The position numbers and the translations under genes are program-made. A stretch of DNA of 32,000 nucleotides from Promethearchaeota archaeon. Its GTDB lineage: Archaea > Asgardarchaeota > Lokiarchaeia > Sigyniarchaeales > SOKP01. The stretch is taken from positions 150,001 through 182,000 of the forward strand of contig JAUWGH010000001.1 in the NCBI GenBank assembly GCA_030606485.1, given 5' to 3'. Below, piece by piece: positions 4,564-27,166 of this stretch. The notes below the pieces were generated by a model. It was not told the origin of the DNA. It made no database searches and was given only the letters and a program-made list of their open reading frames with translations. Each line of letters starts with the position of its first letter. Position 1 is the stretch's first letter.

Positions 4564-6018
4564 TTAATAATATTGAGGAATATGTTCTTTCTCCATTTTT
4601 ACCTTATCAATATGTTCAGTACAATTTTTTCTTTTCATTTTGGCAATTTTTAATAATAAGTTTAAACCGGGCTGAACATCTTGAAGATCTTTCCATTCGA
4701 CATAATTTTTATCGACTAATCCCTTAAAAATTTCCTTTCCAACTTTTGTTCTGACTAAAACAGTCGACCACCCTGCTGGGGACCCAATTGAGCCTATAGA
4801 AATATCAGCAGATTCTGATGTTAAATCATAACAATATTCGCAATCTTCTCTAGCTAGGGAAGTTATTTCTTTAATTGGGATATTTTTAGGTTCTCCATTT
4901 TTTGGATATATAAAAAATTTTCCTTTATTTATGTCCATTTTTTTTATATCATTAATTTCTACAGACAATCTTTTTGCAATTTCTAAAATACTCTCATATG
5001 GAAAGCTTTCCATACAAAAAATTCCAATTCTAAATTTAACTTTTTCCATATTAGGAGTTTTAAAATTATAAATATGAGATTTTAGTAATGCTTGCATCAT
5101 GCATGGCGTTCCAACTACAGCCAAGTTTTCACAATCTATATGCTGATTTAATAATTGCAAATTAGGATTATTTGCATATTTTGTACCTGAGGTTTTTTTA
5201 ATATCATCTTTATTTTTAATTAAAAGTGGTGTTGGCTTCCAAATTGTTTCACTCATACCAGCCCCAATTGCACCATCAATTTGCTGGGTATCAAATAAAT
5301 AATATAAAATAGAACTTGCAATTCCACCATCTTGGCAAATTTTGGATATCTCATCAACTTTTGTTTTTGCAGAATATGCTTCCAAATATTCTCCAATATC
5401 TGATTGATTTTTAAATTTATTTGAATTAGAGATATATATGTTTAAAATGTCTATTGGTAAGTATGACCTTGGACAAACTGTATAACATAACCCGCAACTA
5501 ATACATTTCTCATCATCAATAATACCAACGCCGTTATCAATTTTTATACAATCAACAGGACAAATTCCTTGACAAATTCCACAACCAGAACATATTTTTG
5601 AATCAAATATAACCTTGACAGGTTCATATATTGGTTTAACTTTAATAAAATCCTTATTTTTAATATTAAATTCTAATTCTGAAGTATTTTCATTTTTTTT
5701 AATTTCAATTAAATTTTCATATTTTAAAAGATAAGATAAGCTCAAGATCTTTTTTAAATCATGATTAAATTCTTTACTAAATTCTTTTAAATCTTTAATA
5801 GAAGCAATTTCTTTATTTTTTAAAAAATTAAAAAGAGAATATTTTAATTTGTCTTCATCGTACAATGTAAAAATGAAATCGTAATATTCCTCTTCTGAAT
5901 ATATTCCTGAATTTAAAATGTCTTCCTTAGAATCAATTAGATTTCTAAATCTATATGATTTCATAACATTTAATGCATCATTTAAAACATTCCTATTAAT
6001 ATTCTCTTGCACTTTCAT
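4564..6018 (-). CDS. Coenzyme F420 hydrogenase/dehydrogenase beta-subunit family (FrhB/FdhB-like) with a ferredoxin domain and an extra N-terminal domain
   Basis: CSGCGICQGICP and CISCGLCYTVCP, QDGGIAS, SGTKY, VGTPCMMQAL, IGIFCMESF, CEYCYDLTSESADISIGSIG. Confidence 0.9.
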   Translation of the reverse strand: MKVQENINRNVLNDALNVMKSYRFRNLIDSKEDILNSGIYSEEEYYDFIFTLYDEDKLKYSLFNFLKNKEIASIKDLKEFSKEFNHDLKKILSLSYLLKYENLIEIKKNENTSELEFNIKNKDFIKVKPIYEPVKVIFDSKICSGCGICQGICPVDCIKIDNGVGIIDDEKCISCGLCYTVCPRSYLPIDILNIYISNSNKFKNQSDIGEYLEAYSAKTKVDEISKICQDGGIASSILYYLFDTQQIDGAIGAGMSETIWKPTPLLIKNKDDIKKTSGTKYANNPNLQLLNQHIDCENLAVVGTPCMMQALLKSHIYNFKTPNMEKVKFRIGIFCMESFPYESILEIAKRLSVEINDIKKMDINKGKFFIYPKNGEPKNIPIKEITSLAREDCEYCYDLTSESADISIGSIGSPAGWSTVLVRTKVGKEIFKGLVDKNYVEWKDLQDVQPGLNLLLKIAKMKRKNCTEHIDKVKMEKEHIPQYY

Positions 6019-6071
6019 TTTTCTTCAAATTAAATATTTATTTATAAAATAATCCGAGATCCCTTGCAAGG

Positions 6072-6113
6072 AGAGTCACTTTATAACTAAAATTTTTTTA
6101 TAAAGGTCATTCT
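6072..6113 (-). promoter_or_regulatory. Candidate SECIS element (eukaryote-like GA-quartet hairpin)
   Basis: Minus strand reads AGA-AUGAC-CUUUAUAA-AAAAAUUUUAG-UUAUAAAG-UGAC-UCU: AUGA/UGA core, perfect 8-bp helix, A-rich apical loop, AGA/UCU lower helix. Lies directly 3' of a gene with two in-frame TGA. Confidence 0.75.
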
Positions 6114-6115
6114 AT

Positions 6116-6538
6116 TCAGATTTTTTTTGGTAAAGGAGGCAATTTTTTTAGTTTCTCTATTATATCAGTAGTAGCATTAAGAAAATTTTCCACCTCTGCA
6201 GCAGATACAAAATAATATTCAACTCTATTTTCAGATATTCCGATATGTTTGAAAAGTTTTTTTAAAAATTTAATATGCTTATATGTATTCATATTACCAT
6301 CTCCGAACTCACACTCATGCTCATGTCAACCTATTATTGCAACCCCATCTGCCCCACTGAGAAGTGATTCTATGATTATATCCAAACTTACACGTCCTGT
6401 ACATTTCACTCTTATTATATAGATATCAGATGAATATTGTTTTCTACAAGTACCGGTTAAATCTGCAGCTGCATAACCTCATTTTTCGCAAGCAAACATT
6501 ATAATTTTAGGATTTTGATTTATTATTTTACTTTCCAT
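6116..6538 (-). CDS. mvhD: Methyl-viologen-reducing hydrogenase delta subunit (MvhD/VhuD), selenoprotein with two Sec (U20, U71), 140 aa
   Basis: Hand translation: MESKIINQNPKIIMFACEK-U-GYAAADLTGTCRKQYSSDIYIIRVKCTGRVSLDIIIESLLSGADGVAIIG-U-HEHECEFGDGN...NRVEYYFVSAAEVENF. TGA at 6479-6481 and 6326-6328 align with the Cys of the CxxC and GCH motifs. GAGGGG RBS upstream. Confidence 0.92.
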
Positions 6539-6576
6539 TTTTTTTAAACCCCTCATTTTTTATTATTCACTTAGAT

Positions 6577-8550
6577 TTAAACTGTATCCTCTATAGAATA
6601 ATTATTTCCACAGATTCCATATATTTCACTTTTAAATTGATTATTCCTATAATATTTTAAATCTAATGCATTAGCTGGACAGACTGTTACACACAATCCA
6701 CATCCTTTACAGTTTAATTCATCTATTTCGGCTATACCATCTTCATTTACTTTAATAGCGTGATAGAAACATGATTTTTCACACCGGTGGCATCCCATAC
6801 ATAGATTCTGATCAACTTCCGGAATCATTAAATCCAGTCTTATTCTGCCTGATAATACTAGAGCCGATGCTTTACTCGCAGCTGCTAATGCAGTAGATAC
6901 GGAATATGGAATGTTTTTTGGACCTGCAGCACAACCACAAATATATATACCCCGTTTATTGGTCTCTTGAGGTGAAAGACATCCATGAATTTCTGATAAA
7001 AATCCATTTGGCCCTTTGTCCAATCCCAATACTTCAATGGCTTCTTTTGTTCCTTTTGATGGATTGATTCCGGTGGATAAAACAATTAAATCATATTCCA
7101 TCTCTTGAATGCCCAATGATTCTCTTAAAGAATCTTGCACCAAAAATTTCAAATTTTTTGTTATCGGATCTTCATACACTCGTGAAATATTACTCTTTAT
7201 AAAATTAACTCCTGCTTTCCTCGTTGTGGTATAATATTCTTCATTCCCTTTATCGGTAGCTCTAATATCAATGTAAAAAATTGTGATTTCTATATCTGGA
7301 TATTCTTGTTTTAAAAGTTGGGCATTTTTCATTGCAACCATACAACAAACACCCGAACAATATATATTAGCTTTTAAATTCCGTGATCCAACACACTGAA
7401 ACATAGCAACATTTTTAGGCGTTTTACAATCGGAAATTCTATGGACATGACCATCAGTTGGACCGATTGGACTTAACAATCTTTCCAATTCTATTTGGGT
7501 TATTACATTTGGATAGATGCCATAACCATACTCATTACTATCAATAATTGGATATTCATCCCAACCAGTTGCTATTATAACAGCCCCCACTTTAATATCG
7601 ATATATTCTGGCTGTTGTTCATAATCAATTGCTTCAGCAGGACAATTTGTTTCACAAAGTTTGCAGTCAATGCATACTTCTTTATCAATTAAAGCAAGAA
7701 TCGGGACTGCTTGTGGAAATGGAATATAAATTGAATGTCTCTGCCCAATTCCTCTATTAAATTCATCTGGCACATCTATTGGACATTTAGTGGTGCATAA
7801 ACCGCATCCCGTACATTTGTTTTCATCAACATATCTTGGTTTTTTAAGAATTTTTATTTCATAATTGCCAGCGAATCCACCAAATTCGACAACTTCACAG
7901 TATGTCATTAATTCAATATTTGGATGTTTTGATGCATTAACCATAATTGGTGCTAGTACTCATATTCCGCAATCATCTGTTGGAAATATTCGATCTAACT
8001 GTGCCATTCTACCGCCTATTGTTGGTTCTTTTTCAACTAGATATACCTTAATACCATGATTTGCTAAATCTAACGCAGCATTCATCCCGGCAATACCAGC
8101 TCCTATAACTAACGCCGATTTTTCAACGCTAAATTCTTTGATTGGCACAGTTTCTAAAAGACGCGCTCTATTAACTCCTGCACGAATTAAATTTTTTGCT
8201 TTTTGAGTCGCTTTTTCTTTATTTTCTTGATGTACAAAAGAACAATGTTCTCTTATATTTACCATTTGAAAATAATTTGGATTTAATCCGGACTCAGCAC
8301 ACAATGATTTGTATGTGGGTTCATGAATTTTTGGTGTTCATGACGCTACTACAACTCTATTTAAGTCCAACTCTTGAATATCATTTTTAATTATTTGTTG
8401 ACCTGGATCTGAACATGTGAATTTATTAATTTTAGTCACTACAATATTTGGTAATGTTTCTGCAAAGTCTCTTAATGCTTCACAATCTACGTAACCCCCT
8501 ATATTTACCCCTCACTCACAAACATAAACTCCAATGCGAACTTGTTCCAT
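6577..8550 (-). CDS. hdrA: Heterodisulfide reductase subunit A, selenoprotein with three Sec (U13, U71, U197), 657 aa
   Basis: One continuous frame from ATG 8550 with TGA at 8512-8514 (VYVCE-U-GVNIGG), 8338-8340 (VVAS-U-TPKIHE) and 7960-7962 (FPTDDCGI-U-VLAP), each where HdrA has a conserved Cys. Also GAGIAG, CVGSR, YCSGVCC and four ferredoxin motifs. Joins track ORFs 7960-8304 and 6577-7944. Confidence 0.93.
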
Positions 8551-27026: not shown

Positions 27027-27066
27027 GATAATCAGATTCTTATCTCTAAAATATGATTACAAAATG

Positions 27067-27166
27067 CGCAGAAGGAGGGAATTGAACCCCCGCGTGTGAA
27101 ACACACACCGGCTTTCCCGATTCTAAGAATCTCGAGGCCGGCGCCTTACCACTAGACTACTTCTGC
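27067..27166 (-). tRNA. tRNA-Ser(CGA) with a 17-nt intron at 37/38 (27114-27130)
   Basis: Acceptor GCAGAAG/CTTCTGC with G73, D arm GTC-TAGTGGTAA-GGC, anticodon stem CCGGC/GCCGG with CT-CGA-G, long variable arm TGTGTGTTTCACACG, T arm GGGGG-TTCAATT-CCCTC. Confidence 0.93.

Follow-up and report, generated by a model that had tools for sequence, protein, structure and literature searches.

A Lokiarchaeal-type SECIS element downstream of the hdrA-vhuD gene pair of a Promethearchaeota archaeon and its conserved three-way-junction frame

The 3' UTR of the hdrA-vhuD operon of this Promethearchaeota archaeon very probably carries a canonical Lokiarchaeal (Promethearchaeial) SECIS element of the lokiSECIS or type I eSECIS-like kind, as judged from sequence comparison. 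The element is real and its type is already published; the modest structural addition reported here is a conserved three-way-junction frame around the known hairpin. A preliminary description had placed a eukaryote-type (k-turn) SECIS 3' of mvhD, and an element of the Lokiarchaeal kind does stand directly after the two-Sec MvhD/VhuD gene, which makes it one more instance of a published element and confirms the by-eye recognition of SECIS elements. The window, i.e., the whole stretch of 32,000 nt that was analysed, corresponds to positions 150001-182000 of contig C10 in a 13-contig assembly of 3.75 Mb; the genome has a GC content of 29%. Unless a contig is named, coordinates are window positions.

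The hairpin is encoded on the minus strand (window 6113 to 6072), as are the two genes preceding it. The in-frame UGA (Sec) codons of hdrA are codons 13, 71 and 197 (8512-8514, 8338-8340 and 7960-7962), situated 2404, 2230 and 1852 nt 5' of the AUGA of the hairpin, and the HdrA sequence is intact on both sides of each of them. A spacer of 38 nt separates hdrA from vhuD, in which codons 20 and 71 (6479-6481 and 6326-6328) are in-frame UGA; an alternative vhuD start at 6556 is the start of the published orthologue. The five in-frame UGA codons (three in hdrA, two in vhuD) thus span 218-2404 nt 5' of the AUGA, which lies 5 nt past the vhuD/mvhD stop; the stop UGA itself, 8 nt from the AUGA, is within the element. 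The parts of the locus are as follows.

6577-8550, minus strand: hdrA, 657 codons, UAA stop; Pfam FAD/NAD-binding and 4Fe-4S domains
6116-6538, minus strand: vhuD/mvhD, 140 codons, UGA stop at 6116-6118; Pfam FlpD, PF02662, E=1.7e-39
6044-6128, minus strand: whole SECIS element (85 nt); three-way covariance model R1, 79 bits, E=6e-17
6116-6122, minus strand: predicted 5' strand of helix P1 (AAUCUGA), which holds the vhuD UGA stop; from MFE folds and covariation
6111-6113, minus strand: AG of the putative short k-turn C-helix (6112-6113) and bulge position L1 (A, 6111); from the inferred k-turn register
6107-6110, minus strand: AUGA core, in which AU would be bulge positions L2 and L3 and GA the tandem sheared G.A/A.G; invariant in 20/20 sequences
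6098-6106, minus strand: upper stem, 5' strand (CCUUUAUAA); its first position forms a C.U mismatch with U6078
6087-6097, minus strand: 11-nt apical loop AAAAAUUUUAG, five A first and AG last; fits the published lokiSECIS loop
6078-6086, minus strand: upper stem, 3' strand (UUAUAAAGU)
6074-6077, minus strand: core GA (6076-6077) followed by CU of the C-helix (6074-6075), i.e., the conserved GAC/AAC trinucleotide
6060-6072, minus strand: predicted second hairpin P3 (UCCUU-GCA-AGGGA), loop with conserved GC(A/G), between the SECIS arm and the P1 3' strand
6051-6057, minus strand: predicted 3' strand of P1 (UCGGAUU); from folds and covariation

Read 5' to 3', the hairpin is AGA-AUGA-C-CUUUAUAA-AAAAAUUUUAG-UUAUAAAG-U-GA-CUCU, with an upper stem of nine positions comprising eight Watson-Crick pairs and one C.U next to the core. 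The features picked out in the preliminary description are present: an AUGA/GA core (AUGA at 6107-6110, GA at 6076-6077, minus strand), a perfect 8-bp helix and unpaired As after the AUGA, the last being the A-run that opens the 11-nt loop. The short stem that it had offered as an observation of its own is likewise real, but not new, being contained in Mariotti et al. 2016 (PMC4989117), and its statement that eukaryote-like SECIS elements are established for Lokiarchaeota is borne out by the lokiSECIS literature (PMC4989117; PMC11227280). That interpretation was thus right, but the element as well as its short geometry had been published before.

The 3' end of vhuD shows a peculiarity in this genome. 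A run of 8 A precedes UCUGAAUAG (6121-6128, minus strand) versus 7 A in three genomes of the same genus (L004-L006), so that vhuD ends here in ...PKKI-UGA instead of ...PKKSE-UAG; the longer run may reflect a true indel in the homopolymer or a fault of assembly. Many relatives use the conserved UAG of the AUAGAAUGA motif as their vhuD stop. Within the supplementary FrhD/VhuD (2-Sec) set of Huang et al. 2024, the same-genus proteins are identical to the present VhuD except for the C-terminal residues, two of the three also differing in one internal residue. Downstream, 32 nt past the end of the SECIS element, begins a gene of the FrhB/FdhB family (4564-6018, minus strand) that carries an N-terminal extension and a 4Fe-4S dicluster; this gene may be part of the same operon or be transcribed from an AT-rich promoter of its own. 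The DNA is present in cold-seep and marine-sediment metagenomes, and contigs from four RNA-labelled or possibly-RNA runs span only pieces of hdrA and vhuD, with 5900-6250 uncovered.

The folding energy of the hairpin region was not better than chance when compared with dinucleotide shuffles (z=+0.67), and that of the 85-nt element did not differ significantly from shuffled sequences (z=-0.66); single-sequence thermodynamics was therefore not counted as support. A loose AUGA/9-bp/11-nt/GA pattern occurred 25 times in the whole genome against approximately 17 expected, or 10 times against approximately 6 per genome in Markov-simulated sequence when at least 8 pairs were demanded. The strict sequence pattern had one exact match in the window; shuffles averaged 0.4 matches with one mismatch allowed. 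A pattern-only genome scan was rejected as evidence, being too unspecific and informative only together with gene context. With energy and loose pattern near chance, the significance of the element rests on context and covariation. An Rfam scan around the site, at the gathering level and at E<=10, returned no SECIS family (including the eukaryotic RF00031), and the matches near the site were sub-threshold snoRNA/lncRNA noise far below gathering scores. Mariotti et al. (PMC4989117) likewise report that eukaryotic and other Rfam SECIS models give no match.

VhuD homologues with two in-frame UGA codons were found in 40 of 41 related genomes. When 30 orthologous loci were fetched, an AUGA/9-bp/11-nt/(G/A)A element was present at most approximately 60 nt from the end of the vhuD match in 21, among them 19 with the element within 30 nt and one with a 10-nt loop. 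The stems of the orthologues differ in sequence and keep their complementarity by compensatory changes. In an unfitted MAFFT alignment of 20 elements (A2), 95.6% of the upper-stem cells pair and changes on both sides occur in 9/9 pairs; the corresponding values are 82% of cells and 5/7 pairs for P1, and 86% and 4/5 pairs for P3. With the three helices taken together, 0/500 shuffles reached the values observed for this alignment, and slid controls gave 31-57%. A second set (A3) consisted of 31 elements outside the training set, in an alignment that was model-fitted and for that reason leans towards the structure; here 88.7% of cells pair versus 58.5% in shuffled and 38-51% in slid controls, with double changes in 21/21 pairs. 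Unconstrained MFE folding of the 31 recovered the SECIS stem 25 times, P3 22 times and P1 20 times. The covariation downstream of orthologous mvhD/vhuD genes that the preliminary description had proposed to look for was thus checked, and every stem pair covaries across orthologues and paralogues.

The three-way covariance model matched at full length in each of the 24 same-family genomes, with 2-10 such matches per genome, and gave matches in 3 of the 11 genomes from a second family. For approximately 19 of 20 elements, the stop of an ORF containing UGA is at most 40 nt away; these ORFs are vhuD paralogues, hdrA-like genes standing alone, selD and genes of small proteins with Sec at the end. 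GUGA-type elements from a GC-rich sister family, and an element from one complete genome of another family, have the same P1/P3 layout, as seen by eye and in MFE folds of a few sequences.

Below the core, the preliminary description had drawn a short AGA/UCU helix. It can form in this sequence, but it is in the wrong register and is kept neither in the paralogues on contigs C8 and C12 nor in the orthologues; the conserved feature at this place is an invariant G-C beside a 3-nt bulge. Both the G of the AG before the bulge and the C after the GA are invariant in A2 and A3, so that no covariation can come from that pair. These columns suggest a k-turn register with a C-helix ending in G-C (in most cases with A-U as the pair beneath), a bulge of three nucleotides, N-A-U, and the tandem G.A/A.G. 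The present sequence fits such a k-turn with the putative pair G6112-C6075, the bulge A-A-U, the G.A/A.G pairs and a variable 3b.3n pair. The predicted first NC-helix pair is often non-canonical in relatives; here it is the C.U, and the stem position next to the core is unpaired in 7/20 (A2) and 10/31 (A3) relatives too.

Folds and covariation support as closing helix the long-range P1, formed by 6116-6122 with 6051-6057, which would also enclose the P3 hairpin at 6060-6072. On this comparative evidence the SECIS core is set in a predicted three-way junction, all three helices of which covary over 51 elements. The searchable text of Mariotti 2016, Huang 2024, Sun 2021 and a 2026 review contains no mention of a junction or of an extra 3' hairpin; the P1/P3 architecture, absent from the text of this literature, figures apart, is possibly the sole new point of the present analysis. 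A further-reaching proposal, which we regard as doubtful, is that the functional SECIS in this archaeal order is a k-turn-based three-way junction (variable P1, SECIS arm and P3) in which P3 and the junction are required, for example as a docking site for an Asgard SECIS-binding factor or aEFSec. If the junction or P3 should be functional, this would change the minimal Asgard SECIS to be used in reporter or binding experiments.

Sec machinery genes present in the genome are those of tRNA-Sec, SepSecS, a SelB-like factor and SelD, the last with one in-frame UGA. SepSecS is the neighbour of tRNA-Sec. The SelB-like factor exceeds the curated cut-off and lies 3.5 kb from tRNA-Sec/SepSecS, all three being clustered within 6 kb (C2:188523-194265). 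The tRNA-Sec contains an intron according to ARAGORN. A tRNA-Ser(CGA) in the window (27066-27166, minus strand) has a 17-nt intron; it was seen by Rfam and by the ARAGORN intron search and missed by default ARAGORN.

The strict motif occurs at four other sites in the genome. It follows two more two-Sec vhuD paralogues on contigs C8 and C12, and it stands 38 nt past a small Sec ORF ending in GGGUC (C1:354946-354980, minus strand). A vhuU-like gene (DCULSCAAH; C5:254780-254814, plus strand) stops at the UGA contained in the AUGA of its SECIS, which has AA as 3' core; this layout is shared with VhuU.1 as given by Mariotti et al. 2016 (PMC4989117). In the source genome (C1) and at relatives' loci L087, L092 and L091 there are small ORFs that have Sec as their last residue or close to it (...PPPNGGGUC, ...GGPSU..., ...CGTUG..., ...FKU), and several of them include a hydrophobic stretch. 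The same SECIS architecture comes after every one of these ORFs, which may represent a family of tiny selenoproteins. At a fourth vhuD paralogue (C1:59054-59148, plus strand) the SECIS arm is longer and type II-like, bearing a mini-stem at its apex, in the same P1/P3 frame (33.9 bits). The SelD gene of the source genome (C1:19411-20600, plus strand) is followed by a different, longer 3' structure, and the SelD genes of two relatives (L085, L086) by a standard type I three-way element.

For the hdrA-vhuD operon the following course of events is proposed. The AUGA/GA core would fold as a k-turn at the base of the 9-bp stem, which is topped by the A-rich 11-nt loop. The k-turn SECIS would then recruit, by direct contact or via a k-turn-binding protein, the archaeal elongation factor specific for Sec; the latter route is considered because no SBP2 is known in Asgard archaea. 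Sec-tRNA(Sec) would thereby be delivered to the five UGA codons upstream (three in hdrA, two in vhuD), presumably on a polycistronic mRNA. The stop UGA of vhuD is predicted to terminate translation and not to be recoded, because it is too close to the AUGA, inside the element. To our knowledge, no lokiSECIS has been experimentally tested so far.

Over the 32-kb window the covariance model, run with filters off, detected no second element (the next match reached 18 bits), and the best other match on the minus strand, inside hdrA, reached 14 bits (E=0.64); being the only one in the window, the element would have to serve both hdrA and vhuD. That it serves vhuD alone, with the three hdrA UGA codons using another signal or not being read through, is improbable. 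Such an arrangement would spare the element an action on UGA codons 1.85-2.4 kb away, across a UAA stop and a cistron boundary, for which there is no experimentally proven precedent. Against it stand, besides the absence of a second element in the window with filters off, the intact HdrA sequence flanking the hdrA UGA codons, the hdrA stop, which is UAA as the shared-SECIS model predicts, and the stand-alone hdrA-like genes of relatives (L073, L077), which have their own element at the stop.

Two other readings dispense with selenocysteine. A k-turn RNA of unrelated role, such as an L7Ae-binding 3' end, a stability or termination structure or a C/D-box-like sRNA, draws on the fact that AUGA/GA k-turn motifs are a hallmark of C/D-box sRNAs and L7Ae sites as well, and the genome contains two L7Ae-family genes, L7Ae at C5:40860-41099 and a second member at C5:183045-183326, and, near the site, weak, non-significant snoRNA-like Rfam matches. 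These matches are, however, far below gathering scores, and those of the covariance model lie almost only at stops of UGA-containing ORFs, which makes this reading very unlikely. The C/D-box sRNA variant was rejected outright: neither C'/D' boxes nor guide regions were found, and a 9-bp covarying stem comes directly after the core. Less probable still, with a negligible likelihood, is a functionless AU-rich palindrome arisen by chance in a genome of 29% GC; the non-significant MFE z-scores and the frequency with which loose patterns occur by chance would agree with it, but it is effectively refuted by the conserved position and by the compensatory substitutions in three helices over 51 elements from more than 24 genomes.

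The preferred reading, a lokiSECIS shared by hdrA and vhuD, agrees closely with the published descriptions. According to Mariotti et al. 2016 (PMC4989117), a lokiSECIS consists of AUGA, a 9-bp stem and then GA, and is sited beside the stop codon; its 11-nt loop prefers A at the first five positions and closes with an ultraconserved G that mostly has an A before it, and the GAC/AAC trinucleotide is also noted there. The hdrA-vhuD pairs of that study have one shared lokiSECIS downstream of vhuD, hdrA always stopping at UAA or UAG and vhuD being free to stop at UGA. Huang et al. 2024 (PMC11227280) describe a type I eSECIS-like element and extend the model, with a stem of 7-15 bp and at most 2 mismatches, to more than 400 Asgard genomes. 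The present element shares the AUGA directly 5' of the main stem (6107-6110), the 9-position stem, the 11-nt loop AAAAAUUUUAG and the GA (6076-6077) followed by C, as well as its location only after vhuD, an hdrA stop other than UGA, compensatory changes and a Sec machinery in the genome. No difference exists in the core; the hairpin of the published main texts has no more than a simple stem below it, whereas P1 and P3 are predicted here.

With the eukaryotic SECIS (RF00031; SBP2-bound k-turn) the element has in common the AUGA...GA quartet, the unpaired A's at the start of the loop, the 3'-UTR position and the predicted action on several distant UGA codons. It differs by an upper helix of 9 bp versus approximately 12-15 bp, by a predicted three-way junction in place of helix I plus an internal loop, by its position 5 nt past the stop and by the lack of an Rfam match; a homologue of SBP2 has not been reported in Asgard archaea. 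The euryarchaeal SECIS (Methanococcales/Methanopyrus) is similar in its 3'-UTR location and in serving the same gene, vhuD, and in the methanococcal VhuD SECIS the main stem is also flanked by AUGA and GAC/AAC (PMC4989117), but a GAA_A bulge and a GC-rich upper stem there contrast with an uninterrupted AU-rich 8-bp helix here. Judged from secondary structure only, the predicted extension of a k-turn core with G.A/A.G and a 3-nt bulge into a three-way junction on the C-helix side resembles the k-junction (Wang et al. 2014, PMC4005666; TPP riboswitch), with the differences that here 1-4 canonical pairs lie between k-turn and branch point and that the function is unrelated.
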